Source of the DNA: a virus
Direction: 5' to 3' (one strand)
DNA: 64,000 nucleotides
IMG/VR virus record: IMGVR_UViG_3300025276_000001
Coordinates: 1-64,000 of that record
The position numbers and the translations under genes were made by a program. Positions 1 to 50,600 of this stretch are shown piece by piece (position 1 is the stretch's first letter; every line of letters starts with the position of its first letter). The notes under the pieces were generated by a model. That model was not told the origin of the DNA and searched no databases. It saw only the letters and a program-made list of their open reading frames with translations.

Positions 1-747
1 ACGGATATTGAAACTTACCTAATGTGGGGTAAAGGTGGTAGAATTAAACAAGATGGACCGGATGATATTAGATTATCTGTAGGTTTATGGTCACAGTTAG
101 ATAACTCTTTCAAAAGAGTATATAACAAGTCATCATTTACTCTTGACATGTTTAAGTCTGAGCTTTACAACTTCTATCAAGGTAAAGTTGAATTCAAAGG
201 ACCAGACCCACAAAGATCACTTGTTGTACAAACAGGTATTGCAGGAATGCAATTGATCAACAAAGCTATTGCTGATGAAGTATATGGTTCAGGTCTAGTT
301 CAAAATGCTACAGATATTGGAGCCGTTTCAGGTTCAGGTATGGATTTAGATTATGGTTTTGCTTACACAAGCTTTACTATTCCTTTCTTAGCTAACGTTA
401 AGTTTGTATTGAATCCAGCATTTGATAACTTAAACACAAATGATATTGAGAATCCATTAATTGATGGCCGTCCATTGAGCTCATTTAGTTTCATCATATT
501 TGATGTAACAGATGAAGGAAATGATAACATCCATTTATTGAAGCTTTCTTGGGATAATCAACTTAAGTGGTTCTACCAAAATGGTACTATGGACTACATG
601 GGAAGAACTCAAGGGTTTGCTTCTACTGGAAACTTTAATGGATATAGAGTTATGATGACTCAAACCATGCCAGCTATTTGGGTTAAGGATCCAACTAAAG
701 TTCTTAAAATTGTAATGAGGAATCCTATCACAGGAGGATCATTCTAG
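1..747 (+). CDS. Major capsid protein, C-terminal part (gene starts before the window)
   Basis: Frame is open from base 1. C-terminus ...GYRVMMTQTMPAIWVKDPTKVLKI resembles crAss-like HK97-fold MCP ends. Followed by a strong terminator and by the conserved post-MCP genes. Confidence 0.75.
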   Translation, partial: TDIETYLMWGKGGRIKQDGPDDIRLSVGLWSQLDNSFKRVYNKSSFTLDMFKSELYNFYQGKVEFKGPDPQRSLVVQTGIAGMQLINKAIADEVYGSGLVQNATDIGAVSGSGMDLDYGFAYTSFTIPFLANVKFVLNPAFDNLNTNDIENPLIDGRPLSSFSFIIFDVTDEGNDNIHLLKLSWDNQLKWFYQNGTMDYMGRTQGFASTGNFNGYRVMMTQTMPAIWVKDPTKVLKIVMRNPITGGSF

Positions 748-27400: not shown

Positions 27401-27756
27401 TTAATAACCCAATTTTAGAGTTAACATATCCAATAGTAAACACCAATAGTATTAATATATTATGTTCTAAAGTAGAACAAAAATATAGGTTTAATCAATT
27501 TTGGGATATTACAAATGATAGAGGTGAGTTTCCAAGTGCAGGTGGTGTTATTACACAACAACCAATTTGGAATACACAACTTAATGGATATGTTAGAAAC
27601 TTAAATAATATTAATTTAAATTATTTTAAATCTCCACTGCAACATAAAAAATTCAGAAACTATTTTGTTAATGTTATATTAAGAAGACAAGTATCAGGAG
27701 ATAGACAGATGTTGCTAAGATTAAATAATACTAAATTACTTACATCACTTAGATAA
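21454..27756 (+). CDS. Tail stabilisation / muzzle protein (P22 gp10-like role) with inserted vWA domain
   Basis: 2100 aa; N-terminal FIKGMNKD..NA.N..GNEPSN, YWDDGNNPSRSLNID, SYLRDEQYAF, WTISY..WISFHDWHP, IWRHN motifs typical of crAss Tstab. Confidence 0.8.
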   Translation: MAKQKKQPTKGTTSVITNSFIKGMNKDITQSMEPAQSWWNARNAANNSNAGDMGVIGNEPSNLQCGVIPYTIIGAIHRYGDEWIIYSTDNVSSEIGRFDDSECKYTVIINDPCLAFNKKFLITGAAKENFDCSWEVYWDDGNNPSRSLNIDNVPYKQEITSAPGDPCIVYGDILPRSLNCEKIRLAPLVDTPCIVLEKATDGGMLQNGAYQAYIAYTENEQRVTDFIGISNIQTLWSHKGTDGSLDVHISNLDKDYEFFELALLIRNQGQSYAKRIGLYSTERNEINLDYIDDSLIAIDLKSIPQRSPSYEKSEAMYVVNDWLIRQGPTEQFDFNYQPIANNITTNFVINSVQSNYYHLGGNKLSYLRDEQYAFFIRWIYNTGERSSSYHIPGRAPEYYGPAGADENVDIFGDNVLDPNGDPVFKVYNTGAVTTAVSEPQSDGSTIIARGKMGYWESTERYPVNRPDIWGDLCGKPIRHHKMPAEGSVNGSNKLNLTTDDSDNIHLLGVEFGNIGRPKYNDGTYLPNVVGYELLRGSRGGAKSILGKGLFRNMRKYTVPNAENLIGNDVQGLYPNYPYNDLRPDMYFHDGKRGDPQNPDFNRTESCDNFGESISTYKPLGADGIVDGVQSGYSQKVFTFSSPDLMFTKPFLNAYETRIYGDLNGQSSGYFKASEDHPQFKLIRNGAAIISAFIGVGYAMGQVSGTRGSKFISSQGNYNAGDFYMGLGTGGTTGLGLSAAANLVGAGASEVVNLASYAIFETTDSTMALADLWAGGSVTEIAQGAMNIAAISVGLAPGATGGKWEIVNNKTTPLSNMPALLRAFASMATTGTNISIGGNEIVELIYNLVRPSDFCLKYISSGVFNEFTKRTSDLWRIKNSDSNYLGQSFQSFDQGQYKINNLFRPSTVVVGLERELEPPSTEDKSRFVIGGEVNANGSTSTYSNSYLLDIDRQQKRSISAHYGALKFNFDNQYGQLDGIKQVPMRGCVELIDEDLPEAFMYTSAPIFSGDVFINRYTEKVMMPIFAQFLMGEPDEFTYDYSNHVNIPYPRYWINSQKYDITKLAQKIATLNILSASGFNNNTIDPVLPADLFYLDRGSGTCSIAGLGSLFDTNPSDPNPIFAMRYAYMYTHSNGILDFFVESEINLAQRDWEDTKAKRIYDIYQYNDLVDLFHAAIQKIDNFYKYDESLSPARFPSQLGSWGEMQGRFYDPYVAANCYVSRPKRLIYSLQAQEESKKDFWRVFLNFNYKDFKNKVNVIKPINKNGAIIFFPYLSPQMFQGLDTLKTGMGTKLTIGDGGLFSQPFQNITNSDLSNEYGSCESIRGVINTPMGLFYISQAQGKIFQYAGKGLDPISNKGMKWWFEQYLPSQLIKQFPELEQSVLSDNAVAGVGCQAVYDPNDDIVYFMKRDYSVKAKWLSQISFSETAGFRLFNSIPLTIGDPIYFDDTSWTISYDPKSKGWISFHDWHPEFSLPSINHFFTTKTITTEVPQCPPGYDFNPTTGLCEQSVNETIPATITVEDIVATITGGATNCVLDIVIAMDWSGSTVQNCPGTVPDYNPNTGAMGNTCQGTAQMRWLDVFLNSSGITGPMASGDLQIGFTGWEGSSTRWMQPGNKSMTNTVTSVQAVNWYLGNWGVGVNGTDLSEAMNTTNPTTGSGGFAQLNDKANSTLGDRVSDASFKQILIVVTDGTTGTPEVNVANFQSPNITSGTGQVTNTGSWANTNLGDPLKQEVFGVFCGGNSNVPGNTAVLDNASNSRYNTPSGPAGPNQFTMNAQNNAELEAVASQVAGSVCSIPFSCDCPAGYTKVFQNATTLQFTETSGTCDDTGKVECRKVTCECPPATIPGTVTTALGTCPDSAPLIYLAGPKGDPSFVSDRQCNYFYYNGVTPNYSVGSIWRHNERCDSYANYYGVDYPWEVELVANSGQTVNTLRSIEYQMEAYVYKGVLGYACGNDKWEDLLFNFDQAVIYNNEQTSGLLLLTPTPFNNPILELTYPIVNTNSINILCSKVEQKYRFNQFWDITNDRGEFPSAGGVITQQPIWNTQLNGYVRNLNNINLNYFKSPLQHKKFRNYFVNVILRRQVSGDRQMLLRLNNTKLLTSLR

Positions 27757-30700
27757 TGGAAAGAAAAGACAGAAAATCAATAGGGTTAGTTGGGGGTCCA
27801 AATCAATACATAACAGATATATCTGAATTTATTTCTATTGAAGGATATAAAAGAGACAGTCCTGATGTAAATAACCCATATAACATTATTCCGTCAGGTA
27901 ATATTACTATGGAAGATGTAGACTTTGCTGTTAAGGGTAGAGACAACTTGGGTAATGAATTAATAATGGAGCCTGGTGGTAACTACCAGTTCCCAGGAGA
28001 TAGTGTCTTAGAAACCCGCTTAGCACAAGATGGTACAGAAATGCCATATGAAGGTGATATACCAAGTCCAATGGAAGATCCAAATGGGTTTTTATATCAA
28101 ATAGAAGATTTAGTTGGATATCATTTAGATTATCCAAATGGTAAAGGTGAAACTTTTGCAACAATGCCAGGTGAGGAAAATAGCATTGATAATTTAAGAC
28201 ATGCAGGAAGTGCTAGGTATACAGCAGAAGCAATAGGAAAAAAAGTTAAAGAGGTACCTTATGTTGGTGGACTATTGGATTTTGTTGGTGTAGACAAAGC
28301 AGCTGGTTTTATTGGTGCTAATGTATTAGGCTTAGGTCATGAGCTAACATCTTTTTTTGGTGAAGATGAAAGATCATTCTTAACAAAATTACAAGAAATG
28401 GGTGAAGACTCATTTAATAATTTAGTTGGTTCAATTGTTGGATCAACAGATATGGATTCTGATAAGAAAGATAAATTACTAAAAAAACTTTCATTTAATA
28501 ATATTTTACCTGATGGATATGTAAGTACTGAAAATGGAAGAAAGAATGGCCTTTCTGAAGACATATACTTTAAAGATGAAGAAGGAAAAAGAAAAACTCC
28601 AGAATATAAACGTGGTGGTGGTTTACTAGACAAAACTATGGAATGTAATAGTTGCGGTTGGGAATGGAAAGCTGCAGACGGTGGAGCTGATGTATCTACA
28701 TGTCACAAGTGTGGTAGCAGTGCATTACCTAAAGCTCAAGAAGGGAATTTTCCAACTCCAAATATAAAACCAAGAGAAATTGATTTTATTGATTACAATT
28801 CTTTGGAGAGAAGTAAAAGAGATGATGTAAGAAATAAAGTACATCTAAATAAAGCAACAAACTTTGCAGAAAAATGGATGTCAAGTCCAAGATATGCAGA
28901 ATTGTTAAGTAATTCTGGTGGAAATGATTGGTGGAATAATGGATCAGATATAGCAAAGTCAAGAATAAATAACTTAAATCAAATACAAAAAGAAGTAAAA
29001 TATATAAAGGATGATCCTACACAATCTTATACAGAAGAAGAGTTAGAAGGCATAGGAGGTTATTCAAGTAGTAATACTGGTGAAATTCATGTTAACCCGC
29101 AACAGGGTGCTTTAAAGCATCATACAATATATGATCATGAAATTTCACACAGTGTTGATAGACCTGCAAAAGGAGACAATATTGTAAAACAATTTGCAAA
29201 ATTCTATGCTAGAGGTGCGACCCACGCACAACCTAGATTAATACCAAATAGTGATGTAGAACTTACAGAAAAACTTTTAGATAAATCTATACCGCAAGAT
29301 GACATTGTTACATTTTGGGCAAAGTATGGAGACACTCCAGAAGAAGGGACTAGAAACTATTTTTCTGAGCCTACAGAAGTAAGAGCTAGACTTTCTCAAA
29401 TAAGAAGAGAATTAGACAAAGCAGGTGTAGATATATTTAATAATGAAATTACTCCTGAAGACTATGAAAAGGTAAAATATAGAGGTCCAGTAAAAGGCCT
29501 TAAAAAAGTTTATTCTGAAGAAGCTATTATAGAAATGCTGAATACAATATCAGATGCTGGAGAAAATGCTGGAGAAAATAAAGATGGATTATATTATGCT
29601 CAAAGAGGTGGTTCAACACAAAGGGTTAATTCAATATCAAATGATATATATTTAAGACAAACATTTGCTGAGTCAAGTTTTAAACCTGGTGCAAAATCAA
29701 ATGTTGGAGCACAAGGACTAACACAGTTTATGCCTGATACAATAGAGTATTTAATTGAAAGAGGAACACTACCTGAAGACTTTGATATACATGATCCTAA
29801 ACAAGCTGTAATGGCACAAAAACTTTATATGGAAGATATCTATAATAAAGATTTTATCAACAAGCCTAACCAGTCTGATCAAGTTAGGTTAGCTAAAACT
29901 TTAGCTGCATATAATGGAGGACCAACTAGACTTAAAAATATATTGACTGCACAAAAAAATGAAGGAGTAGATATATATAATTCTCTTGATTGGATGTCTG
30001 CTTTACCTAAAGAAAGCAAAGAGTACATTGATTTAATATTATTAAATAAAAACACAACAGGTAGACCTAAGTTTAATGAAAACTTTGATAGTTTATTAAT
30101 TGATGAAAATTACAAAAAATACATTGATCTTTATCAACAAGGTGGTAGTGTAAACTATACCGTTGCTGCTGGAGATAATTTAGGTAAAATTGCTAATAAG
30201 TATAATACATCTGTTCAAGAAATTGTTGATTTAAATAATATAGAGGATGCTAATAAAATTGGTATTAATCAGGAATTAATAATACCTAGTTCACAAATGC
30301 AAGAAGCAGATATTACTTCTGCATATAAAGTAAGATCAGGTGATACATTAGGTAAAATAGCAAAAACATATAATACTACAGCTAAAAATTTAGCAGAGTA
30401 TAATGGTATTAAGAATATGAATATGATTCAGGTTGATCAACAAATATCTATTCCTGATAATATTAGAAAGCAAGTAAAGAAACCTGAGCCAGCTTGGTAT
30501 GGAGTAGATGATGTAAAAACTAGGAACACAAAAACAAACAGTCAGAGTGATACTAATATAATAATGCAATCTCAATTATTAAATAACCCTAACCAAAGCT
30601 ATGTAATTATAGATAAAAAGTCAGGTCAGTTAAGAGTTATGAATGGTGAAGATGAAGCATTGAGTTTTGAGGTTCTTACTGGTGATAATCCTGGTGATGC

Positions 30701-32072
30701 TCAAACTGTAACTAAAATGGTTGATCAAAATAATGATGGTAAAATTACTGATCAAGATAGAAACAGAAAAAACCAATGGGTAACGGATTGGTCTGCTGGT
30801 AATAAATCTACTGGAGCAGGTATATATTCAATAAGTGCTTCTTCACCAACATCAAAGCCTGGATATCAGAATGCTCCAAGTTGGAATTTAATAAATGATA
30901 ATGGTATTGAGGTATCTACAGCAATACATGGTACAACAAATTATAGAAAACAATTCTTTAATGACGGTAACACTGAGAACAACCAAGCATCTAATGGATG
31001 TATAAATGGACAATGTAGTGACTTAGATGCATTATATGATTTAGACTTGCCAATGGGTACTCCTATTTTTATTTTACCAGAAGATGAAGGAAACAATTTC
31101 ATGTTGCAAGATGGTAAAGCAATAATGAAAATGAGTCAAGAAAATAGAAGTGATTATTTAGATTATACTGATTCTAAAGGTAGAACACAAAAAGGTCAAG
31201 GAGGTAACTATACTACAAACACCTTAGTATATAAACCAATAAAAGCTCAGTTCAATGAAGAAAAATTTAAAAAAGAAAGATTTACAGCTTTTGATTTTAA
31301 TGATACTGAAGAATTAGAAAATTCAACAATACCGTTTATACAAGCTCTTGAAAATAACAAGAAAAAAATAATGCAAGAAGCACAAATTTCTGGAGATGTA
31401 TATAATCAAATTGCTAAAATTGCTTTTGGGGTATATGGTACTGAATCAGAATTTGGTGATACACATAGTTGGGTAGGTAATGCTGCAAGAGGTGCAAATA
31501 AAAAATATGGTACAGATGGCTCATCACCAGACATTACAAAAAAATATGAAGGTTTTGACTTACCATTTACTGAGGCAGGAGCAGGAGCACAATCAAATAA
31601 TAATAGTGTAGGCTATACACAAATACGTTGGAGTCAGCTGAATGATAAAGAGAAGAAAGTATTAAGAGCATTTGATATTACATCTAATGAAGACTTTATG
31701 GATCCTACTAAATCAGCAATAGCTACAGCATCAATATTAGGTGTACGTTATAATGAGCAACTTACTGGTGAACAGAAAAAAAATATATGGGCAAACTTAC
31801 CTGGTAAATGGAATAATAGAGCTAATTATGCAGACAGAGTAAAAGAAAACTCAGTCTATTTAGATTTTCAACAAAAAGATGTAATGGAAAATGGTGGTGA
31901 AATTGAAAATCATATCATGTATAAAAACTATGTAAATGGTGTTTATGAAGGAAGTAAAATGGAAACTAAAGGTGCAAAGATTTATGATAAATTAAATAGG
32001 ATACATTATAGAGATGCAAAAGCATCTAACATGACTCCTTCAAATTACGTCATGACTAACGTTATAGGCTAA
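27756..32072 (+). CDS. Multidomain cargo protein: Zn ribbon, zincin-like, SLT lytic transglycosylase, 2x LysM, L,D-transpeptidase-like (YkuD), second lysozyme-like domain
   Basis: CNSC..CHKC; HEISH; ESSF..A.S..GAQGLTQFMP..LAAYNGG; YTVAAGDNLGKIA and YKVRSGDTLGKIA; AIHGT..SNGCIN; TESEFG..SVGYTQI. Confidence 0.85.
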   Translation: MERKDRKSIGLVGGPNQYITDISEFISIEGYKRDSPDVNNPYNIIPSGNITMEDVDFAVKGRDNLGNELIMEPGGNYQFPGDSVLETRLAQDGTEMPYEGDIPSPMEDPNGFLYQIEDLVGYHLDYPNGKGETFATMPGEENSIDNLRHAGSARYTAEAIGKKVKEVPYVGGLLDFVGVDKAAGFIGANVLGLGHELTSFFGEDERSFLTKLQEMGEDSFNNLVGSIVGSTDMDSDKKDKLLKKLSFNNILPDGYVSTENGRKNGLSEDIYFKDEEGKRKTPEYKRGGGLLDKTMECNSCGWEWKAADGGADVSTCHKCGSSALPKAQEGNFPTPNIKPREIDFIDYNSLERSKRDDVRNKVHLNKATNFAEKWMSSPRYAELLSNSGGNDWWNNGSDIAKSRINNLNQIQKEVKYIKDDPTQSYTEEELEGIGGYSSSNTGEIHVNPQQGALKHHTIYDHEISHSVDRPAKGDNIVKQFAKFYARGATHAQPRLIPNSDVELTEKLLDKSIPQDDIVTFWAKYGDTPEEGTRNYFSEPTEVRARLSQIRRELDKAGVDIFNNEITPEDYEKVKYRGPVKGLKKVYSEEAIIEMLNTISDAGENAGENKDGLYYAQRGGSTQRVNSISNDIYLRQTFAESSFKPGAKSNVGAQGLTQFMPDTIEYLIERGTLPEDFDIHDPKQAVMAQKLYMEDIYNKDFINKPNQSDQVRLAKTLAAYNGGPTRLKNILTAQKNEGVDIYNSLDWMSALPKESKEYIDLILLNKNTTGRPKFNENFDSLLIDENYKKYIDLYQQGGSVNYTVAAGDNLGKIANKYNTSVQEIVDLNNIEDANKIGINQELIIPSSQMQEADITSAYKVRSGDTLGKIAKTYNTTAKNLAEYNGIKNMNMIQVDQQISIPDNIRKQVKKPEPAWYGVDDVKTRNTKTNSQSDTNIIMQSQLLNNPNQSYVIIDKKSGQLRVMNGEDEALSFEVLTGDNPGDAQTVTKMVDQNNDGKITDQDRNRKNQWVTDWSAGNKSTGAGIYSISASSPTSKPGYQNAPSWNLINDNGIEVSTAIHGTTNYRKQFFNDGNTENNQASNGCINGQCSDLDALYDLDLPMGTPIFILPEDEGNNFMLQDGKAIMKMSQENRSDYLDYTDSKGRTQKGQGGNYTTNTLVYKPIKAQFNEEKFKKERFTAFDFNDTEELENSTIPFIQALENNKKKIMQEAQISGDVYNQIAKIAFGVYGTESEFGDTHSWVGNAARGANKKYGTDGSSPDITKKYEGFDLPFTEAGAGAQSNNNSVGYTQIRWSQLNDKEKKVLRAFDITSNEDFMDPTKSAIATASILGVRYNEQLTGEQKKNIWANLPGKWNNRANYADRVKENSVYLDFQQKDVMENGGEIENHIMYKNYVNGVYEGSKMETKGAKIYDKLNRIHYRDAKASNMTPSNYVMTNVIG

Positions 32073-32138
32073 CGTTAAACCTTAAAAATTAGTAAATCTC
32101 TTGATTTATTTGTATATTAATAATATAAAATCATTGTT

Positions 32139-35100
32139 GTGAAAGTAAACAAATTAAGTTTAAAACAGGGTGGAGGAAGTAGTGAACAACCTTCACATCA
32201 AATGCCAGATGGTAGTGTTATGCCAGGTGCAACTCATCAAGAAGCTGAGGGACAACCTATTATGCAAGACCCAAATCAACAACAAGATCCCGCTATTGCA
32301 CAAATAACAGAGATGGTAAGTAGTGCTTTATCAGATGGAGAAGACCCAGTTGGTATAGTAATGGCTTTGATTGAACAGCAAGTAGATCAAAATATTATAG
32401 CTCAAGCTTTTATGAGTGGTGGTTATGCAGAAGAAGATGTTGTTGCTTTATTTGAAACAGTACAACAAAAATCTCAACCTCCGGCTGCTGCTTCAGCAGA
32501 AGAACAAACTAAAGATCCACAAGAGATTGCAAGAAATCAAGCTATGCAGGAAGAAGCTGTAGCTGCTGAAAGCCAAGAAGCAGAAATGCTTGCGGCTGAA
32601 CAAGATGCAATGTCTGAAACCCTAATGGGTAAATCTGGTATAGAAATTAAACCTGAGAATAAAGGTAAATTTACCAAATGGGCTAAAGCCCGTGGAATGT
32701 CTGTTTCTGAGGCTTATAATAAAGTAATGTCTAACAAAGACAAGTATGCTCCTAATGTAGTAAAGATGGCAAACTTTGCTAAGAATGCAGCAGGTTGGAA
32801 AAAAGAAGAAGGTGGAGAGCAAGAAGCTTATAAGCCACACTTTATGTATAAGGGTAAAAGAAAAATTAGGGCTAAAGATATGGAAACACATCTTAGACTT
32901 AAAGAAGCTGGTTATAATCATGATACACCTAAAGCACAGCCAGGTGGAGAACAAGGAACACAACTAGGAAGAGGTGAATCAATAAATACTAATGGAGAAA
33001 AAGTAAATAAATTTGGTAATACTAATGCTCAACAATCTATAATAAATCAAAATACAACAAGTAAACAAACAACATATCCAACTGAGTATTCCAATTATAG
33101 GAATGCTATGACAGCAAGAAGTGTTTGGGAAGATGGTGATGGTGGTAAAAACTTTTTGAAAGATTACCCACAACAAGCTGAATTAGATTCACTAAGAACA
33201 GTGTATAGAAATTTACCTAATATAACTAATATACCTAAAGGTAAACAAGGTAAAGAAATGATTAAGCGTGCTGATGGATCATATTCTCAAAGAGGCATGT
33301 GGGATAACATTAGAGCTAATAAAGGAAGTGGAAAAAAACCTACAGCTGAAATGTTAGCAGAAGGAAGAAAACTTAAAACAGCTCAAACGGGTACTGGAAA
33401 AACTGCTGCACAAAAATTCTATGAAACAACAGGTGTTGTTAAAAGAGGAGATGTATTAACTAATACTGCTCCAAGATATACATTACCAACTACATTCAGT
33501 GATGGAACAGATTTTACTGTATCTGGAGCTCTATCAACTCTTGCAGATGTTGGATCAACTTTATTTAGTAGTGAACTTGATGAAAATGGTTTGAAGTCAG
33601 GAACCTTTATGGATTGGAAAAAAAAGGGTGCTGTTGAAGATGAAATAAAAGGAAACTATTATAACTATGAAGGTACTATAGACCTTAATGATCCAAACCA
33701 ATATGCCGGAGATAATTTAGATTTATATAATGCATCTAAATATAAGAGACCACTTAGAACAGTAGAACAATATAGTGAAGACGTTATGGAAAACTCCATG
33801 GTCAACTATAATGAAGAAACAAAAGAATATGATTTTACTAGATCAAGTAGAAAAATCAATCCTAATCTACCTGGTGTTAATCAAAATTCTTTAGATGGAG
33901 AAAATCTAAATTACTTTAATGAAGTAGATGCTAAGACCAGACAAGAATTATTAGATTTTGGAAGTAGTGATGCTCCAGAAGGTACTACATTAAGTATAGA
34001 TGAAATGGGTGCAACAAGTTATGTAGATCCAGAAGCTGAGAATCTTAATGAGTATGGTACTATGATGGGTTATAATAAGTCAGGAGTAGATAGACGGCCT
34101 AAAGTTATTGAAGAGGAACAAACTTCTATGATACAACCCAATGAGCAAGGTATGTTTAGAGAGCCTAGTATTGTATCAGTTGATCAAACAGAAGAACCTT
34201 TAAGTTTTAAGGAATGGGCAATGCAAGATAGTGTTCGTAGAATGGGTGCAAATGCTCCACAACAATATCAAGACTATATTAATGGTGTAGAAACAGAAAC
34301 AACTAAACCAAGTCTAGAAGATAAGATAAAAACTGGATTAAATGAAGCAGGTGAATTTATTGAAAGTAAATACAATCAAGCTGCTCCAGTTGTTAGAAAA
34401 GGTATTGATGATGCGGGTATGTTTGTTAAAGACAAAGTTAACAGTGGATTAGAATACTTAGAAAATAAGTTTAAAGAAGGTGGTGATTTACCAAAAGCAC
34501 AGTTTGCTGGACAACCAGGATTCTATGATGCCTTATCAGAGTTTACTAGCAACTTGGATTATTCATCAAATTCAGATCAATCAGATATGTTTAATCAACA
34601 ACAAATGAGTTTTGATAATAATCTTCCTTTTGATAATCCAAATAATCAAAATGCAATAGCAGATTTAAATAATGCTATCAGCTTTGGTCAACAAACTGAT
34701 TACAATAGAGATACTGAAGCTGTTAAACGTGCACAAATTGATAATGGGACTTATGGTAATAATAAACAACAATGTCCTGAAGGTCAAGAGTATGATGAAG
34801 TAATGGGACAATGTGTATTAAAAACTGTTGATGTTGTTGAAGATGAAGTTGCAGTTGCAAAACCGCTATATGAACCTGATGCTCCTACAGTTAAAAGAAC
34901 AAATAAATTTAGTGGTGGTTTAAATAGATTTTTAGATAGTAAAGAAGTTGGTGCTTTTGAAGATGTTTCTACAGCAGCTGTAGCAGTAGCAGGTGTAGCA
35001 AATGATTTCTTTAGAGAACGTAGTGTAAATGAAGCAACAGCAAGCAATAGAGCTAATGCAACAGCAGATGAAGTATATGGAGTCAATGAAGATCCATTTA

Positions 35101-35423
35101 TGAAAAGAGGTTCATGGGATATTAATACAGGTACATTTGGTAGTGAAGGACAAAGAACAGTAAGAACAAATATGGGTACTGCTAAAAATGGAGGAGGAAT
35201 AAACAATGCAGGATTTAAAGCTTTGCCACCACAAGCACAACAAAATATTTTAGATAACATGTTATATGGTGGTGATCCAAACCCAGGTATTAGAGCACTT
35301 AGAAAAGTTGCTCCAGAAGTAGTATCAAAAATGGGATATAAATCAGGTGGAGAAACCATCAACGTAAATTCTACTATCTTAGCAAAACTAATTGCAGCGG
35401 GAGCTGATATTGAAATACTATAG
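32139..35423 (+). CDS. Modular cargo/internal virion protein (1094 aa, GTG start)
   Basis: Long ORF of short basic modules and Q/E-rich segments separated by xxGG motifs; lies in the cargo region. Confidence 0.75.
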   Translation: MKVNKLSLKQGGGSSEQPSHQMPDGSVMPGATHQEAEGQPIMQDPNQQQDPAIAQITEMVSSALSDGEDPVGIVMALIEQQVDQNIIAQAFMSGGYAEEDVVALFETVQQKSQPPAAASAEEQTKDPQEIARNQAMQEEAVAAESQEAEMLAAEQDAMSETLMGKSGIEIKPENKGKFTKWAKARGMSVSEAYNKVMSNKDKYAPNVVKMANFAKNAAGWKKEEGGEQEAYKPHFMYKGKRKIRAKDMETHLRLKEAGYNHDTPKAQPGGEQGTQLGRGESINTNGEKVNKFGNTNAQQSIINQNTTSKQTTYPTEYSNYRNAMTARSVWEDGDGGKNFLKDYPQQAELDSLRTVYRNLPNITNIPKGKQGKEMIKRADGSYSQRGMWDNIRANKGSGKKPTAEMLAEGRKLKTAQTGTGKTAAQKFYETTGVVKRGDVLTNTAPRYTLPTTFSDGTDFTVSGALSTLADVGSTLFSSELDENGLKSGTFMDWKKKGAVEDEIKGNYYNYEGTIDLNDPNQYAGDNLDLYNASKYKRPLRTVEQYSEDVMENSMVNYNEETKEYDFTRSSRKINPNLPGVNQNSLDGENLNYFNEVDAKTRQELLDFGSSDAPEGTTLSIDEMGATSYVDPEAENLNEYGTMMGYNKSGVDRRPKVIEEEQTSMIQPNEQGMFREPSIVSVDQTEEPLSFKEWAMQDSVRRMGANAPQQYQDYINGVETETTKPSLEDKIKTGLNEAGEFIESKYNQAAPVVRKGIDDAGMFVKDKVNSGLEYLENKFKEGGDLPKAQFAGQPGFYDALSEFTSNLDYSSNSDQSDMFNQQQMSFDNNLPFDNPNNQNAIADLNNAISFGQQTDYNRDTEAVKRAQIDNGTYGNNKQQCPEGQEYDEVMGQCVLKTVDVVEDEVAVAKPLYEPDAPTVKRTNKFSGGLNRFLDSKEVGAFEDVSTAAVAVAGVANDFFRERSVNEATASNRANATADEVYGVNEDPFMKRGSWDINTGTFGSEGQRTVRTNMGTAKNGGGINNAGFKALPPQAQQNILDNMLYGGDPNPGIRALRKVAPEVVSKMGYKSGGETINVNSTILAKLIAAGADIEIL

Positions 35424-35425
35424 TC

Positions 35426-38179
35426 ATGGCAAAAATTAAAATAAATAAATTACCAAAAGGGTTTAAATTACTAGACGGCAAAGTTGTTGAAGAACAAGTT
35501 ATGAGAGACGGAGGTGATTTACAAACTGGTGACCAAGCTGATTATGGCCTAGTTACAACTCCACAAGAATACTATAATAATACTAACTTTAACAACACTG
35601 ATGATAGGGATGTTAGATATAGTTTATCTAGTGTACCTAGAGAAAATGCTAATATAGAAGCTGAAGGTGGAGAAACTGTTTTAACAGATTTGACTAATGA
35701 TGGTACGTTTGGATTATATGATATAACAGGACCTAGACATTCTAAAGGTGGAGTACCAATGTTTTTACCTGAACAATCATTTATATATTCAGATACAGAC
35801 AAAATGAAATTTACAAGTGAAGAGTTATCTGAGTTTGGAATTAATAGTAAAAAGAAAATAACACCTGCTAAGTTATCTAAAAAATATCAATTGAATGATT
35901 ACTATAACCATTTAACAGATCCTTATGCAGATAATATACAAGCACTAACTTCAGAGTTAATGCTTAAAAAGAATATGATGAATCTTTCTAAGTTAGCATT
36001 TACACAAGAATCAAAAAAGAAATTTGAAGAAGGAGTTCCATTAGCTGCACATCCATATTTAGTACAACAAGGTATTGACCCAATACAGTTTACAGCAGAG
36101 ATGGAACAAATCAGTAGAGAGCAAGCTGAAATGGAAGCAATAGCAGCATTACCGCCTGAGCAACAACAACAAGTAATGATGATGCAACAGATGATGGCTC
36201 AAGAACAAGAACAACCTCAACAGCCTCAAGGTCAAGAAATGCAAACAGAAGAAATGATGATGCAAGAAGATGCTATGGCAAGATTTGGTGGTGAAAGAAA
36301 ATTAAAAAGATATCAAAAAGCAGGAGAGACAGGTAAAGAATATTCAGAAAGAATGGGTCAAACATGGGATCCAACACTTAAGAATCCTACATATGATAAG
36401 AAAAATAAGATGTGGGTATACGGAGATGGTACTCCATCTGTATCTAAGTCTGATGCTATGAGAATGGCTATGTCTGGACAAAAACCAAGTCAAGATTATT
36501 ACATTTCAGAAACTGAATTAGAAGGATCAGTAAATACAAATACTCAAACTGGAGGTGATAATGTAGAAGTATTAGAAACTGAAATTACTGAGTCATCTAC
36601 ACCAGGTACAGGTAATCCAGGTATACCTGCTGAACAGTGGGCAATATGGAAACCTTATATAGATAATGGAGCAACGCTAGAAACTATTACTCTTGATGAT
36701 GGAAGAAAAACAGTTAGAATTTCTACTCCAAAAAGTGATGTACAAAAACTTAGAGAACAAGTTACTGCTACAAATCTTGTAGGACGTGGAGGTACAACTG
36801 ATATATATGGTGAAGATATAAGTGGTCAAGGAAGAGCTATTAAAGAAGGAACACAAGAAGGATGGGTTTATAAAGAAGGACCACTTACAGGAGGACAAAG
36901 AAATGTTACTCAAGCAGGTGTTGATGGTGTGTATGGTTCTAGTGATATTAATTCTGAGACAACTCAAACAATATTTAGAGATAATTGGGGAGATACATTA
37001 GAAAAAATTGAAGAGCAATTTGGTGTTCCTTTTGACAATACCAATGATGAACAAGTTCTGGCATTTCAAACTGCTGCAGAAGAACAAAGAAAATTAGATG
37101 CAGCAGCAGCAGGTGTTGATTATATCCCATACTTTAAAAAACCAGGAGATGAAGGCTATGTAAAAGGACAGTCATTAGATGGCAAGATGGGTTTATATAC
37201 TATTAACATTCCTAGGTTAAGTAAGAATGACCAATTTAATGATGAAGCTACATACGGAGACATAACAAAAGATGATCTTGTACCAGGAGAAATTGACGTT
37301 AAAGAAAGAGGTCAACCAGAATGGTGGATTCAAGATCAAAATAATTTAAATGCATTAGGTCAAATAGATGATAATTTATATTTACCATGGGCTCCAGATG
37401 CACAACGTGTTACACTTGCACCAACGTTTGATGATTGGAGATCAGCTGTTAATTCAAATAATTCAACAGCTTCTACTATTGCTCAAGCTTTAGGAGCAGT
37501 TGGTGGACCACAAGCAGTTGCAAATTCACAAATACAAGGTCAAACATTAGAAGCAAATGCAAAAGCTATAAACAGAACTAACACAAATAATGTTGGAATT
37601 GCAAATCAATATGGAGCAATGCAAGCTCAGTATGATAATTTAGCTAACCAGGAGAATGATAAAAGAAAGATGGCTGTTTATGACAACACTCAGAAAACTT
37701 TGCAAGCACATGACAACTTTCTAAATTGGAAAATTGGTGAGAATGTTAAGCTACAAAACGCAGCATTAACAAATAGAGCTAATACATTTAATTTAAATAG
37801 CACATATGATAACTATGAAATTGATCCAAGAACAGGTGGTATAATTGATTTTACAGATCCAAGAGCATTAGAAAAACAAGGGCCAATAGCAGATCAAAAA
37901 TCAAGAGAAAGAGATTATTTTGAAGGAGTTACTTCTCTTGCTAAAAATTTAAATAGAGAACCTACTAGTGCAGAAATAGAAGGTTTCTTTGATTATACTA
38001 GAGGTAGTGGAAAGCCAGCATATAGAGATCCAAATATATCTAATGCAGCTGCTGAATTACAAAAAAAAGGTGCACCAGGAAGATCAGTAAATGCTAATGT
38101 GAACACACAAACAGCAAGAAAAGGAAAAGAACTTAAACGAATGGTAGTACCATTCTATAGTGGTAAAATGGGGAGATAG
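35426..38179 (+). CDS. Cargo/internal virion protein (917 aa)
   Basis: NIEAEGGE..GPRHSKGGV..FIYSD motif seen in crAss-like cargo proteins; Q/M-rich linker; N/Q/A-rich coiled C-terminal part. Confidence 0.7.
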   Translation: MAKIKINKLPKGFKLLDGKVVEEQVMRDGGDLQTGDQADYGLVTTPQEYYNNTNFNNTDDRDVRYSLSSVPRENANIEAEGGETVLTDLTNDGTFGLYDITGPRHSKGGVPMFLPEQSFIYSDTDKMKFTSEELSEFGINSKKKITPAKLSKKYQLNDYYNHLTDPYADNIQALTSELMLKKNMMNLSKLAFTQESKKKFEEGVPLAAHPYLVQQGIDPIQFTAEMEQISREQAEMEAIAALPPEQQQQVMMMQQMMAQEQEQPQQPQGQEMQTEEMMMQEDAMARFGGERKLKRYQKAGETGKEYSERMGQTWDPTLKNPTYDKKNKMWVYGDGTPSVSKSDAMRMAMSGQKPSQDYYISETELEGSVNTNTQTGGDNVEVLETEITESSTPGTGNPGIPAEQWAIWKPYIDNGATLETITLDDGRKTVRISTPKSDVQKLREQVTATNLVGRGGTTDIYGEDISGQGRAIKEGTQEGWVYKEGPLTGGQRNVTQAGVDGVYGSSDINSETTQTIFRDNWGDTLEKIEEQFGVPFDNTNDEQVLAFQTAAEEQRKLDAAAAGVDYIPYFKKPGDEGYVKGQSLDGKMGLYTINIPRLSKNDQFNDEATYGDITKDDLVPGEIDVKERGQPEWWIQDQNNLNALGQIDDNLYLPWAPDAQRVTLAPTFDDWRSAVNSNNSTASTIAQALGAVGGPQAVANSQIQGQTLEANAKAINRTNTNNVGIANQYGAMQAQYDNLANQENDKRKMAVYDNTQKTLQAHDNFLNWKIGENVKLQNAALTNRANTFNLNSTYDNYEIDPRTGGIIDFTDPRALEKQGPIADQKSRERDYFEGVTSLAKNLNREPTSAEIEGFFDYTRGSGKPAYRDPNISNAAAELQKKGAPGRSVNANVNTQTARKGKELKRMVVPFYSGKMGR

Positions 38180-41672: not shown

Positions 41673-44600
41673 ATGGAAGAGGTACAAAATAATACAGGCT
41701 TAGCTGAAACAATCAAGTCACAGGAAGTTCCATTACAGGAGATACCTAAAGACAGACCTTATATTCCAATTGAGGAAATGTTTAATACTCCGGAATATGA
41801 TGAATGGATAAGCAGTGCTGACGTTGCACAAATACAACAACTTCAAGAGTCTAAATTAGACATTGATAAGTATAGCCCAGCTGCTATGGCCAACCTAGGT
41901 ATAGCACGTCCATCACAAGCAACTACAACATTTGATCCTGTTGCACAACAAAACCCACCAACATTAGAAGAAGAAGGTGGATTCACCAGGCTTCTTAATG
42001 AAGGTATGAATAAAAACTTATCTGTATTAGCTAAAGAAGCAAATGATAACTTTACTGTTGATCCAGTTATATCAAACATTAGACAAACTAATTTTAAAAG
42101 ATATTATGAACATCCTGAATATGCTGATTTAGGTTTCTCTCCTTTTGCAAATAATGAACAGTTCTATAATGAGAATTCTACAGTGTGGGATGATTACTCT
42201 AGAATGTGGGGTCAGTTTGGTAGCTTAGCGGGTACTGGATTTATGAGTGGTTACAGATCAATAGGTGACTTTTTTACAGGAGAAGGTTTAGAAGCAGATA
42301 GACAAAGTGCTTATGAGTTTGAAGATGCTATGGCAATTGGAAACTCATCAAGAGGTGGCGCAATGGCTTGGACAAATAACTTATTGCTTAACTCTGGATA
42401 CACTATGGGTATCATTAGTAGTATAGCATTAGAAGAACTTGTTTTAGCAGGAGCTACAGCTTTATCTGGAGGAGCATTAGGAGCTCCTGCCGCTATAAAA
42501 ACAGGAATTAATGCTGCAAAAATTACTAAGACAGTATCTAATTCATTTGGTGTAGGAAGAATGGCCAACTGGACTAGAAATATGTTGAAGCAATTAAATA
42601 ATGCTGATGCAGCTAAAGACTTATATAATGGTGCTAATAGTGGAAGAAAGTTTTTAGGTAAAATATTTTTACCAGAAACAACAGCAGCTATTAGAGGATT
42701 AAAAACTACAGCAAATGGTGCACAAAATGTAACTAATTTTGCTAAGGGTGCAAAAACATTTGGTGGATTCTATAAAGATTTAAGATCAGTTAACTATGCA
42801 TTAGCTGAGTCTAAGTTAGAGTCAGGTATGGTTTATAATCAGAGGTTAAGACAGAATTTAAATATTGCTAATGAATCAAATTTTGGAGGGGAAATAACTA
42901 CTGAACAAATGGAAGCTGCAACTAGTAATGCTAGTGAAGCTGCATTTGAAACTTTGATAAGAAATGCACCATTAATCTATGCAAGTAACTTTTTTGTTTT
43001 AGGTAATGCATTTGGTGGGTTTAATAAGTCATTTGCAAGAATGGCTAATGATAGTTATAAGTCTATTGGTAGAAGGATAATGAGAAAAGGTGCTGCTACA
43101 GGTGCAGACGGACAAGTACTTAAGAATGTTTTTTCTGATGCGGGTACAGGACTTAAAGGTTTATGGAATAGAACAAAGAATGCAGGAGTAAGAGGTGGGG
43201 GTAAAGCTTTATTTCATTCAAGTGCAAGATACTTTGCAGCAAATTTTGCAGAGGGTATACAAGAGGTAGGGCAAGAAGCAATATCACATGGTGTAAACCA
43301 TTACTATGAATCATTATTTAGAGATCCAATGTCAGGTGGTGCTCAGCTACATAAACAATCTGTTAATTCAGGTATGGGTTCTCAGTTTAGTGGGCAAGGA
43401 CTTGATGTATTTATGTCAGGTTTCTTAATGGGTGGTGTAGTATCAGGACCACAAAAACTTTTCTTCCAAGGCGTACCTGCAGTATATAACTTTGCAAAAG
43501 GTAAAGGAGCATTTGGTGCAGAAGGAGCAGCAGCAGTTGCTGAACAAAACAAAACAGAAAAAGAATTTATTGATTCTGTAGTAGCTTCATATAATGCAGT
43601 TGCAGAGGGTGTTGGTGGAGTAGCTCAGTCTGAAGGAAAAGATTCTGTTGATCCAGGATCTGCTTTTGACATGACTTTACTTAATTTTTTAATTCAAAAA
43701 CAAACAGGTGCTGAGTTAACAGGAAACTCATATGATGGTAACATCTTTGGATATCAAGATGCAAAAGACTTTGGTACATTCCATAACTTATACCAGGTGT
43801 TTAGTACTGGTGGTGCTGCTCAGTTTGAGAGTATGATAAAAGATTTCCAAAAACTAGATGATGCAGCTTTACTTGAAGCATTCCCTGCTAGCAAAGCAGA
43901 AATCAAAAGTGGTAAGTTTAGGTCTAAGTTTACTAAGATGGAACAAAACATGGACAAGATGGAAGTGGATTACAATGCAGCTAAGGATTTATTTCCTAGC
44001 CCATTTGATTCTAGCCAGATGGACAAAGGTACTAGAGCATACCAAGATGAAAGAATAAAAGAAATGTCTTGGAGACATGCACAGTATTTATACATGTTTA
44101 CTAAAGATGGATTTGATCAAGCATTGGTTAGATCAAGTAGTATATATAAAAGATTAGCTGCTGATCCATTATTTGAAGGAATGGCTACTAGTGATGTAAC
44201 TGTTTTATTAAGTCCAGATAGTTTAAAAAATGAAATAAGATTATTAAAAGAAGAGCTATCTACTTATGAAGTAGATGAAGACTCTAAGAAATTAAACAAA
44301 GAAATTATTGCTGCCAAGAAAGGTAAGCAAACTAGATTAGAAGCTTATTTAAAAGTAGTAGAGGATCCTAAAAATCAAAGTAAGGATGGTATCTATGACA
44401 GAAGAAGCATGACTGAAATTGAAAGAGTCTTTGATGATTATATTAAATTTATTGCTAAGAGTGAAGGCAGCTTTATAAATAAAGAAGCTAGAAGAGAAGC
44501 ACTAAAAGATATTATAGATTACAAAGCTTTAAAAGGAAGAGCTATAGTGTATGATAGAACTATGGAGATGATGGCAAATCCTGCTAGGTTCCAAGAGATA

Positions 44601-47600: not shown

Positions 47601-50600
47601 GAAGAATTTGATGAATATGCAGCAAGTAACTTTAACAATTTCCCTATAAAGTATTTACAACATATTGCTAATAAGTTAGATTTAACTGAAGTAGAACTTA
47701 ATGAGAAAGAAGCATTAGTATTTGAAGCACAACGTGAAGCAATAGCCGCATTAGCAGCTATAAATCCTCAAACTCCTGCAATAGATAATTCAGAAGTATT
47801 AGAAAGATCTGCACTTGTTGCTGTTAAAGAAAATATAAAAGCTTTAAAAGCTAAATTACAAAAAGGTAAAACTGGAATAGATAAAATTATAGTACTAAAT
47901 GAAAGTGAACAATTTCAAAGACTTTTAAAAAGAAAAGATGAATTAACTGGAGCGGCTAATAAAATTATAGCTGCTATGGAACCTCAAGATATAGAAGATA
48001 TAAATATCTTTTTAGCTTGGGCCAGTAATAATCTTCCGGGTAATATTACTATACAAGACATTGCTTTATTAGGTGACAACTTAAAAGCAGGCGGTGTCAG
48101 AGTTGGTGCATTTGTTTTAAACCTTAGCAACATAGCTGGTGGAGAAACAATTAATGGTACACTATATACTGGAGCTCAGTCTTCACATAGATATCATGAA
48201 GCTTTCCACGGTATATTTAGAATGTTACTTAGTGATGTTGAAATTAACAAGTACTTAGCAATTGCTAAGAAAGAAGTAAGAGCTAAACTAAGAGCTGAAG
48301 GTAAGACTTTAGAATCTGAGTTAAAAATGTTTAGACGTTCAGCTAACACTTATACTAATATGAGTATGAGTAGACTTGAACAAGAGTACTATGAAGAGTA
48401 TTTAGCTGATGAGTTTCAGAAATTTAAAAGAAATCCAAAGAGTAGTAATACTTCTTCAGAAGTTAAATCATTGTTTACAAGAATATTAGATTGGATTAAA
48501 TCTGTATTCACAAGTTATGATACTAAAGAGCTTCAAACATTATTTGATAACATTGATGCAGGTAAATATAGTGACGCTCAAGTAGCATCTAATCAGTTTA
48601 CTAATTTAGGTATTACATTAGAGGCTAATGCAATTATTCCATATTCTGAAAAAGAGGAAACTGCACTAGTGTCAGATACTGAAGGTGTACAAACAAGAAA
48701 GAATAGAACTGGTTTTTTATATTTAGATAGCGTAGTTGCTGATCCATTGGTTGCTTCTATAGCAGCAATGTATTTACAACGTGTTAGTAATAACACAGAT
48801 CCTTTACTTTTAAGATCTACAATGTTACAAGATGTATTAAATGATTTTTATGTATTGTATGATGTTGAATCACCACATAACTTATCTAAGTCTGATAAGC
48901 AAAAGGTGTTACTAGAACAAGCAAGTACTGCAATCATAGAATATAAAGAATCAATTAAAAAACAAGTATACGGAATATTAAATGTTATTGATACTCAAGT
49001 AACAGAAGAAGAATATAATGCTGAGTTTTTTGAAGACAAAGTTGGTTTAAGAACATCAAGTCAATGGAATACTGACGCATCAATGATTGGTGGTATACAA
49101 TCAACACCTAGAGAAGTAAGAGCTTATCTAGCTACTACTACTATTTCTGAGAAAGATTTCTTTGGTAATACAGAGTTAACACCTGGTGAACGTATAATTG
49201 TTCCTGTAAACTTTTCTGAAGTATATAATGGATTATTAAAGTCTGTTAAAAATATTGAAGACCCAAAACTAATGTTGCAGAACATGTACTTCTTTGGTCA
49301 ACAGAATCCACAAACTGGAGCAGCAGTAAGTAGAATTTTAAGTGACATAGGTATATCTGAAGAAGTGTTACTAAGTGATGCGCCTCTTCCTTTACAAATG
49401 AAAAATGCAAAGTTGTTTCAAGCAATTACTAATGCATTTGAAAACTTTAGAATAGATTATTTATTTACTCAAACAGATAACTCTGGTAATGTATTAATGT
49501 ATTCTGCTGCACAAAGGGATGATGTAAACTCTCAGTTAGATAGATGGTCTCAAGCTTGGGGTCAAGCATCTAAAAAACTTTCAGCAGACAAAGCAGTAAA
49601 GGTTCAATTAGAAAGAGTTTTGGATAGTCTTCAAGATTCATTAAATAACAATCAAGAAGAAGTAGGTATAAGTATAATTGACGCTCTTCAAGACAATGGT
49701 TTATTATCAACAGAAGAAAAAACTGCAATATCTGATAAGGCATTAACTGAAATGTCTCAAAAGTTCTCATCTAATATATTTGACTTAACAGGTATAAAGC
49801 TAAGTGCTCAGTTTATTGCATTTAGTATGATTAAAAATAGACAGGTTAAATTCTTAACACCTAAACAAAAGGCATTAATAAATGTCAATGCTCAAGAAAC
49901 TCCTATATCTCAACTTGATATAATTGAAATGAGACGTTTGATAGTAGACAATAGTGATATCTTTAGTGATGGGGATCAAGGAATGAATTCCAGACTTAGA
50001 AGAATGGCTATTGACAATGCACCTTTTGATGAAACAATAGGTCTCTCAGTATTTAAAAACGCTGAAGGTAACTTGGTTTATGCACATCAGAAAGGAACAT
50101 ATCATTTAAAAGAAGTACAAAAGTTAAATGATTTAGCATACTTAGAACAACTTAAAGAACAAGATCCTTATTTAGATAACAATCATCTTTTAAATAATGA
50201 AGCCTTTAAGCAATTATCAAATGACAATCAACAAAGAATATTAAGAATAGCGGGAACTGCAGTTGGTAAGATTAATGCTACTGAAGAAGAAATTAATGAT
50301 AACATATCTGGTATATCTTCAAGATCTACATATGGTAACTTTACTCCTCAAGAGTTTGCACTTAATTTAATAAACTCTTATACCGGATTACTAAATACTA
50401 AATCAGGAAAGGTAAAGTTTGTAGAATACAAAGATGGTAGAACTGGTAAAATGGTTAGGGTAGCATTAACTGCAAGCCTAATAAGAGTTTTAGAATCATC
50501 AAATACTGGAGATCTAATGTACATGCCGGTTGTTAATGCTGTAAGGTATGCAAGTGGTGACAGAGGATCAAGTGTGTTAACTGATGATGTACTTGTAGCT

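Follow-up and report, generated by a model that had tools for sequence, protein, structure and literature searches.

The 64,000-nucleotide stretch analysed here (IMG/VR record IMGVR_UViG_3300025276_000001, positions 1 to 64,000; hereafter the window) makes up the opening 64 kb of a phage genome that is complete at 114,099 bp and carries direct terminal repeats at its ends. The genes of the window lie on the + strand almost throughout. Within it, three consecutive open reading frames (ORFs), P1 (27756..32072, 1438 amino acids), P2 (32139..35423, 1094 amino acids, with a GTG start) and P3 (35426..38179, 917 amino acids), contain repeated copies of a peptide that we call the seam, which recurs at the edges of their modules. 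As judged from the sequences compared below, the seam is a real, clade-wide and apparently undescribed feature of crAss-like cargo proteins; within this genome it is restricted to P1–P3. All features are on the + strand unless stated otherwise.

The genome has crAss-type PHROG matches for the portal (phrog_6547, 1.3e-90), the large terminase (phrog_6681, 6.7e-59) and the major head protein (phrog_11589, 9.1e-19). In tblastn the portal is 22–26% identical to those of csAssE-Sib, cr85_1, PhiCrAssBcn and IAS virus, and the best match, at 32%, is Leptolyngbya phage Lbo-JY46. With all three of these proteins being of crAss type, the phage appears to be a distant marine crAss-like podophage. Searches of the phage collection gave no DNA match to P1 or P2 and no protein match to P3, and no cultured member of the clade turned up.

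P1, P2 and P3 follow a 2,100-amino-acid virion protein (gp2100) and are followed by ORFs of 1,133 (gp1133), 4,755 and 1,991 amino acids, the last of which aligns in its C-terminal region with gp65 of Cellulophaga phage phi14:2 (E 9e-7). The three genes probably occupy the cargo-gene position, between the large protein in the tail/muzzle position and putative RNA polymerase-associated giants, and their products would be carried in the particle and injected. A profile scan of IMG/VR yielded 80 related loci, each taken with 10 kb on either side, and the order gp2100, P1, P2, P3, gp1133 is kept across them. Over these loci P1 (406–2,276 amino acids) and P2 (478–1,761) vary widely in length, whereas P3 (738–1,426, mostly 830–1,000) and gp1133 (1,013–1,198) are much steadier. 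Pfam recognises an SLT domain, two LysM domains and a YkuD domain in P1 only, and nothing in P2 or P3.

A long peptide motif is confined to P1, P2 and P3

An earlier note on this DNA, made by a model from the letters alone, had described about 20 copies of a glycine-rich motif, [AYMF]-[QKER]-x-G-[GKT], in the three ORFs, and the nucleotide coordinates of all 20 sites match the quoted residues exactly. As a regular expression the motif occurs 14 times in P1–P3, as against 2.8 +/- 1.6 in 2000 composition-matched shuffles of the three ORFs, none of which reached 14 (the maximum was 9); the enrichment therefore survives this control. The remaining 31,814 amino acids of the genome hold 9 hits (P1–P3 together comprise 3,449 amino acids). 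The stricter form ending in GG is found 11 times in P1–P3, where 1.05 are expected, and four times elsewhere in the genome, and GG dipeptides overall are only mildly raised in the three ORFs (34 vs 24.9 expected).

Because this expression had been written post hoc, with the data already seen, we built an independent position-specific scoring matrix (PSSM) of 14 columns, trained solely on the P1–P3 homologues of the 80 loci and with the window excluded from training. The PSSM recovers 19 of the 20 sites, all except MLYGG, and splits FKEGG-DLPKAQFAG in two, giving 20 hits. At a score of at least 13 it finds 12 hits in P1–P3 and none in the rest of the genome (~31,800 amino acids). In the relatives, seams scoring at least 12 occur at 2.4–4.8 per 1000 amino acids in P1–P3, compared with 0.03–0.07 in the homologues of the flanking gp2100 and gp1133 and 0.04 in shuffles, and the motif is present in every one of the 68 related loci that hold all three genes.

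The PSSM converged on the consensus (E)-L-P-K-A-Q-x-G-G-E-[L/I/V/T]. The constant core is L-P-K-A-Q/K-x-G, followed by G or by x-E, with Gly the most conserved residue of the seam. With site calling limited to the upstream half (-7 to 0), Gly stood at +1 in 38% and Glu at +2 in 42%, the latter rising to 52% where +1 is not Gly and falling to 25% where it is; over differing site sets, Glu is found at +2 in about 42–58% of seams. Since Gly at +1 is present in just 38% of sites and Glu at +2 partly replaces it, GG is a subtype of the seam. The conserved peptide that had been described as a ‘GG’ motif is thus real, but its second Gly is optional and its core, L-P-K-A-Q-x-G, is longer. Seams may also occur in tandem pairs 7–15 amino acids apart, which account for 87 of 683 inter-seam gaps. 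Synonymous codons at seam positions are used as they are gene-wide; this argues that the seam is selected as a peptide, and on the same ground we rejected a DNA-level recombination signal at the seams.

Outside P1–P3 the PSSM found no seam in the capsid and portal proteins of the genome, and none scoring at least 8 in the 4,755-amino-acid protein; if that giant is cut, it is therefore not cut at this motif. The sole seam-like site near a terminus outside the three proteins is a weak one, YQQGKS (PSSM 9.9), at residues 10–15 of a 338-amino-acid head-region protein (1150-2166).

Seams mark the boundaries of modules

To relate seams to module edges, we compared 135 distinct P1 and P2 proteins all against all and measured the distance from the internal ends of their high-scoring segment pairs (HSPs) to the nearest seam, relative to random positions. 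Twenty-two per cent of internal HSP ends lie within 5 amino acids of a seam, as against 4% of random positions. HSP ends peak 0 to +5 residues after the conserved Gly, at five times chance, and HSP starts are enriched about twofold. AlphaFold2 gave a similar picture: in the model of P1, which covers residues 250–1438, all 5 seams lie in linkers of low predicted local distance difference test score (pLDDT<50) between folded domains. These results bear out the earlier note’s proposal that the motif marks module boundaries. They also agree with what is seen across related loci, where module gains, losses and moves fall precisely on the motif, as with a Zn ribbon that has been relocated together with its seam.

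P1 is the most recognisable of the three proteins, with a constant N module, variable payload modules and a constant C tail, and it has homologues at the same position in the 80 loci. Throughout the family the head comprises 95 amino acids and the tail ~60. Seam number climbs with P1 length (r = 0.62). The N module (27756..28040, residues 1–95) is matched by HSPs from 59 loci and ends in the seam AQDGTE (28023-28040, at residue 90; PSSM 17.9), and the ends of 52 HSPs with other loci fall within residues 81–100. A Zn-ribbon mini-module (28605..28745) starts at the seam YKRGGG (28605-28622) and ends at PKAQEG (28728-28745), which score 14.0 and 14.5; it forms a block of pLDDT ~70 flanked by two low-confidence gaps. 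Sixteen other P1 proteins also contain this module, at differing positions, and in three examples, where it sits at residue 96, 197 or 288, a seam lies 1–2 amino acids upstream in each.

Further along P1, the string HEISH (29136..29150, residues 461–465) belongs to a poorly conserved module with only a sub-threshold DUF3810 match (E 0.0044). An SLT lytic transglycosylase domain follows (29667..29963, residues 638–736; PF01464, E 5.8e-17), and its block is edged by two seams: AQRGGS, directly ahead of it (29598..29615, PSSM 14.3, in the pLDDT<50 segment 325–375 of the model), and YQQGGS, between SLT and LysM (30132..30149, PSSM 9.9, in the pLDDT<50 segment 542–547 of the model), with 12 HSP ends at residues 781–800. 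Next come two LysM domains and a YkuD L,D-transpeptidase-like domain (30153..31073, residues 800–1106; PF01476, 4.6e-27; PF03734, 5.3e-08). The last seam, MENGGE (31884-31901, PSSM 15.5), precedes the constant 58-amino-acid C tail, the two together spanning 31884..32069; the tail is found in 66 loci, and 36 HSPs start at residues 1361–1380. Of the domain labels given to P1 earlier, SLT, both LysM and YkuD are supported by Pfam, while an ‘RH..HE’ module, a lysozyme and a ‘zincin’ have no significant family match.

P2 is a cargo protein of small modules with 10 seams. Its first seam, LKQGGG (32160..32177, residues 8–13, PSSM 11.8), ends at about residue 13. Nearly all P2 homologues open with M-K-V-N-K-x-S-x-K-Q-x-G-G, and the median position of the first seam among them is residue 15. 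A mini-module (32625..32819, residues ~168–221) lies between the seams MGKSGIE and KEEGGE (PSSM 16.6 and 11.5) and is followed by KAQPGGE (32931..32951, PSSM 15.7), with 17 HSP ends at residues 261–280. A 45-amino-acid basic module is flanked by GKQGKE (33240-33257) and AQTGTG (33381-33398), scoring 14.3 and 10.0, the whole spanning 33240..33398, and FKEGGD-LPKAQFAG (34470..34511) forms a tandem seam (PSSM 14.3 and 13.3). Two more seams, AKNGGG (35181) and YKSGGE (35337), with scores of 11.9 and 12.2, lead into the constant 22-amino-acid C tail, ..LAKLIAAGADIEIL (35181..35420 in all). Most P2 homologues end 24 amino acids past the last seam, with ..VDSxxLAKLIAAGADIExL.

The module at P2 residues 168–221 recurs as complete free proteins of 56–71 amino acids on dozens of contigs, including 63 for P0208, 28 for P0186 and 27 for P0213. 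These free versions stop exactly at the start of the P2 seam (..FAKNAxxW plus 1–3 residues), and all but one are without a seam, the exception being P0197, which retains an N-terminal LFGKSGIY. Because the free versions lack it, the seam is a property of the fused context and not of the module fold. We also considered whether natural gene splits fall at seams, but the two split P2 genes found (L005 and L044) show apparent frameshifts or breaks ~25 amino acids from a seam; they are not clean seam splits and are uninformative. As a separate observation, P2 residues 20–33 (32196-32237) read H-Q-M-P-D-G-S-V-M-P-G-A-T-H, and the P3 homologue P0014 has a similar insertion, H-x-M-P-D-G-S-M-M-D-G-A-x-H (columns ~293–305 of the first of the two P3 alignments described next). 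The H-x-M-P-D-G-S element may be a portable His/Met-rich metal-binding mini-motif.

P3, with 777 homologues and 4 seams, is the conserved member of the set. Two alignments were made, one of 23 homologues and one of 35 covering the first 300 residues. The family opens with MAKIKINKLPxGF...M-x-x-G-G and ends with G-K-E-x-K-R-M-x-V-P-F-Y-T-G-K-M-G. In the first seam, MRDGGD (35501..35518, residues 26–31), G29 and G30 are invariant in both alignments; M26, G288, E290, Q297 and G900 are further invariant in that of 23 sequences. The second and third seams form a tandem, ARFGGE...YQKAGE (36278..36328), in which G288, E290 and Q297 are invariant, and large indels of a hypervariable region start directly after it. 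In relatives the second P3 seam is a 14-residue tandem element, M-A-x-Y-G-x-E-L-P-K-A-Q-x-G, whose second Gly is swapped for K, R, A or M while E290 is invariant. The last seam, ARKGKE, is followed by the constant C tail LKRMVVPFYSGKMGR (38114..38176); G900 is invariant, and K901 and E902 are each present in at least 90%.

Between the first and second P3 seams lies a strongly conserved N-terminal domain (35516..36205), with 42 invariant columns in 35 sequences, that AlphaFold2 does not fold (pLDDT ~30). The P3 model as a whole is poor (pLDDT 54 overall), and all 4 seams are in pLDDT<50 stretches. A profile search of P3 against PDB sequences found nothing, and the model is too poor for a fold search. 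Residues 31–260 are among the most conserved stretches of the locus and have no family or PDB sequence match; this region may need a binding partner, for instance the portal, in order to fold.

Comparison with known systems

Processing sites repeated in packaged proteins are familiar from other viruses. The phage T4 protease gp21 cuts at L/I-x-E and removes a capsid-targeting leader, and the phiKZ protease (gp175) cuts at S/A/G-x-E at many sites in head-internal proteins. The seam resembles these in being a short consensus repeated in packaged internal proteins, which in T4 and phiKZ lose N-terminal targeting leaders. Unlike those systems, this genome has no detectable assemblin-fold or T4-type protease, its capsid and portal proteins bear no seam, and Glu at +2 is limited to ~42–58% of seams. 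Among eukaryotic viruses, the adenovirus protease cleaves (M/L/I)xGG|x and pS273R of African swine fever virus (ASFV) cleaves GG|x in virion polyproteins. The seam shares with these sites a hydrophobic residue ahead of x-x-G-G in virion proteins, but no CE-clan cysteine protease was found in the genome, the hydrophobic position is one residue off, and most seams can do without the second Gly. The results thus speak against the analogy with adenovirus and ASFV that had been drawn for this locus: the complete genome has no Peptidase_C5 or C48 match, and a second Gly is found in just 38% of upstream-half seams.

The closest positional counterparts are the cargo proteins C1 (gp45) and C2 (gp46) of Bacteroides phage crAss001, whose genes occupy the same place as P1–P3, between the large tail/muzzle protein and the RNA polymerase-associated giants (Bayfield et al. 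2023, PMC10172136). Both are packed in the virion and partly disordered (PMC10172136). Seven phi-x-G-G sites flank ordered docked segments of gp45, with a weak fit to the seam PSSM, and gp46 has none. In contrast to crAss001, there are three cargo genes here. Two of these vary extremely in length and are densely filled with enzyme modules and mini-modules, and the consensus is the longer LPKAQxG. P3 could not be shown to be homologous to gp45 (hhalign probability 0.3%; BLASTP E 0.057 over 37 amino acids): the family model PF25725 (crAss_CARG1) matches nothing in the genome at E<=10, and none of the 35 P3 N-terminal sequences matches it at E<=0.1. An ESM Atlas feature neighbour of the P3 N domain does carry PF25725 (0.91), a lead only. 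The crAss001 atlas (PMC10172136) and the crAss001 isolation paper make no mention of proteolysis, and the atlas is silent on any motif. Likewise, neither ‘LPKAQ’ nor any statement of cleavage was found in the relevant papers that could be searched.

P1 can also be compared with the polyvalent proteins, which are injected, multi-domain and combine unrelated activities (Iyer, Burroughs, Anand, de Souza and Aravind 2017, PMC5512222). Its predicted domain content fits their multi-domain character, with SLT, two LysM, YkuD, a Zn ribbon and an HExxH module in one polypeptide within a block of virion protein genes. That work defined no junction or cleavage motif, and its MPTase-PolyVal model has no match here. 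P2 is unlike polyvalent proteins, its mini-modules being 20–60 amino acids long and not enzymes.

Elsewhere among crAss-like phages, end pieces of P1–P3, including the P2 C tail, are recognisable in Lbo-JY46, the nearest cultured phage found, whose P3-like protein has an LPKAQIGME seam at residues 8–16; no paper naming this phage was found. The cargo-position genes g068–g070 of phi14:2 have no seam, and the motif is therefore not universal in Crassvirales.

Neighbouring genes

Several genes around the locus deserve mention in their own right. The first ORF of the window (1-747) matches only the C-terminal part (positions 278–490 of 495) of the major head protein PHROG, and the capsid gene may span the contig ends (window 1-747 plus genome 113012-114099), which are direct terminal repeats. 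A 1,765-amino-acid tail-fibre protein (8348-13645) matches the C-terminal ends of tail-fibre PHROGs in its last ~100 amino acids (phrog_25848, 3.4e-28), and this end may be a self-cleaving intramolecular chaperone. Outside the window, on the - strand, the genome encodes a GroEL/Cpn60 chaperonin (74416-76050; PF00118, 1.2e-76), as does phi14:2 (g105); a phage chaperonin could matter in folding or refolding giant cargo proteins. Pfam gave no hit for the 438-amino-acid ORF that lies between the genes for the portal and the capsid.

Possible roles of the seam

The explanation that we favour, tentatively and with somewhat less than even confidence, is that the seam is a processing site for payload release. 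The constant end pieces of each cargo protein would load the chain into the particle, and between them would lie a variable string of autonomous payload modules, each exchangeable and each bringing at its C-terminal edge a seam of the form (E)-L-P-K-A-Q-x-G-[G or x]-[E]-[L/I/V/T]. Recognition of the seams would then lead to cutting of the strings, whether in the head or once ejected, so that the modules come apart; this would also remove small leader peptides (P2 residues 1–13, P3 residues 1–30) and the constant C tails. Counted in favour of cutting are the presence of one seam per module, the lack of seams in free module versions and the location of seams in accessible low-confidence linkers. 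Seams are also placed like those of leaders at N termini (P2 ~13, P3 ~29) and like those of tails near C termini (in P2, 24 amino acids from the end), and the invariant G-x-E of the second and third P3 seams recalls the T4 and phiKZ protease sites. Zincin processing of polyvalent injected proteins has been predicted (PMC5512222), and cleavage of crAss polyproteins has been suggested (bioRxiv 10.1101/2020.03.07.982082).

If the seams are cut, the candidate enzyme would be the HEAFH-bearing region of the packaged 4,755-amino-acid protein (ORF 41673-55940) or, alternatively, a host protease. The string lies at residue 2175 (48195..48209), and Y-HEAFH-x-[VI]-[FY]-R is kept in five of five complete related genomes, making it the only conserved candidate metalloprotease site in the family, a putative one. 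The earlier note had named two zincin-like strings in the window as possible enzymes; HEISH appears too rare to serve as a general one, and HEAFH is conserved but matches no zincin model. Two observations bear on this region: the giant fused protein has no Pfam match along its whole length beyond sub-threshold noise, and phi14:2 gp65 carries HEIMH, yet its alignment is to the C-terminal part of the following ORF (55948-61923), an ORF without any HExxH. A further possible protease candidate lies beyond the window at genome 85222-86385 (-), where a DUF2201 putative metallopeptidase with a VWA-like domain contains HELLH; this gene is outside the virion block and on the opposite strand.

A number of results weigh against cutting. 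Searches of the complete genome for Peptidase_C5, C48, S77 and S78 (S77/S78 at E<=1) and for MPTase-PolyVal (PF18818) at E<=1 gave no match. The HEISH module of P1 is found in just ~3–7 of the 80 loci, and an HExxH string of any kind is present in P1 or P2 in 19 of 68 loci, yet seams are present in all 68. The HEAFH string has no Pfam zincin match, and its region could not be aligned to the zincin of phi14:2 gp65. The seam itself, with 10–16 conserved residues and often in tandem, has a form commoner for a binding peptide than for a protease site, and the residues past the conserved Gly are heterogeneous, 30% of upstream-half sites having neither G at +1 nor E at +2. The conservation of the ends of P1, P2 and P3 suggests that intact chain topology matters. 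Finally, we found no published evidence of seam cutting or of cleavage products, and the A425-F-G-G-W site of crAss001 gp45 lies inside the modelled portal-bound segment 425–552 (PMC10172136) and is hence continuous and uncut in the virion. That site scores <6 by the PSSM, and, as noted, homology between P3 and gp45 is not demonstrable.

A second explanation, which we consider about as likely as cleavage and a realistic possibility, is that seams stay uncut and serve as docking or connector peptides. Each would be a short linear motif folding onto a site that recurs inside the particle, on the portal, the tail barrel, the capsid wall or another cargo protein. The strings would thus stay ordered for packing and threading through the tail, with their modules tethered. 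A long conserved stretch, often in tandem, within otherwise disordered linkers is what a binding motif looks like, and seams near the N termini of P2 and P3 and directly ahead of constant C tails are sensibly placed as handles. In crAss001 gp45, ordered docked segments begin at or just after phi-x-GG (209–210 before the helix 214–245; 427–428 at the start of 425–552, the latter uncut), although these sites fit the seam PSSM weakly. The lack of a recognisable protease in the genome (C5, C48, S77, S78, MPTase-PolyVal) also fits docking, as do gel bands of ~270 and >300 kDa from crAss001 virions, the sizes of the largest proteins, to which the paper’s text assigns no band. However, the constant ends would suffice for loading, a handle at each joint is not obviously needed, seam number scales with module number, free-standing module versions have no seam, and no receptor was identified. 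The earlier note had offered polyprotein cutting and a docking tag as its two readings; the role at boundaries that both presuppose stands, and the choice between them is about even.

An improbable alternative is that the seam acts passively, as a hinge or domain cap: a Gly turn that insulates modules so that each can fold, unfold and refold independently at ejection, and that would be retained since recombinants sharing a standard joint are viable. Seams do lie in flexible inter-domain gaps and coincide with recombination joints, and Gly is their most conserved residue. But a hinge leaves unexplained why L, P, K, A and Q/K are conserved over 6–8 positions in otherwise unalignable proteins, and why seams are confined to three proteins and missing from the multi-domain giants beside them (2100, 1133, 4755 and 1991 amino acids). 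Codon usage carries no DNA-level recombination signal. Lastly, an artefact of chance or of Gly/Lys/Gln-rich composition, for which speak only the post hoc definition of the motif and the mildly raised GG count, is refuted by the shuffles (0/2000 reach the count), by recovery of the sites with a PSSM from other genomes and by invariant columns in 35 P3 homologues.

An extension of the processing explanation, which we regard as doubtful, is a clade-wide ‘plug-and-play’ payload system in environmental crAss-like phages. Any small protein or any enzyme that carries a seam could be inserted between the constant loading ends, and a packaged protease (for example the HEAFH region) would cut every seam and free a cocktail of effectors in the host at injection.

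Implications for crAss-like phages

The crAss-like phages are among the most abundant viruses, and how megadaltons of cargo protein are loaded, ordered and delivered by them is an open question. A seam at each joint is a concrete, mutable handle on this question, one that predicts sites for neo-termini or for docking contacts. It also gives an operational way to divide giants that resist annotation into functional units, several of which also occur as free small phage proteins. If the seam is a connector only, it would still be a useful annotation rule, with no new mechanism; if cutting is true, it would define a processing specificity new to phages and, for injected effectors, a naturally occurring cassette system.

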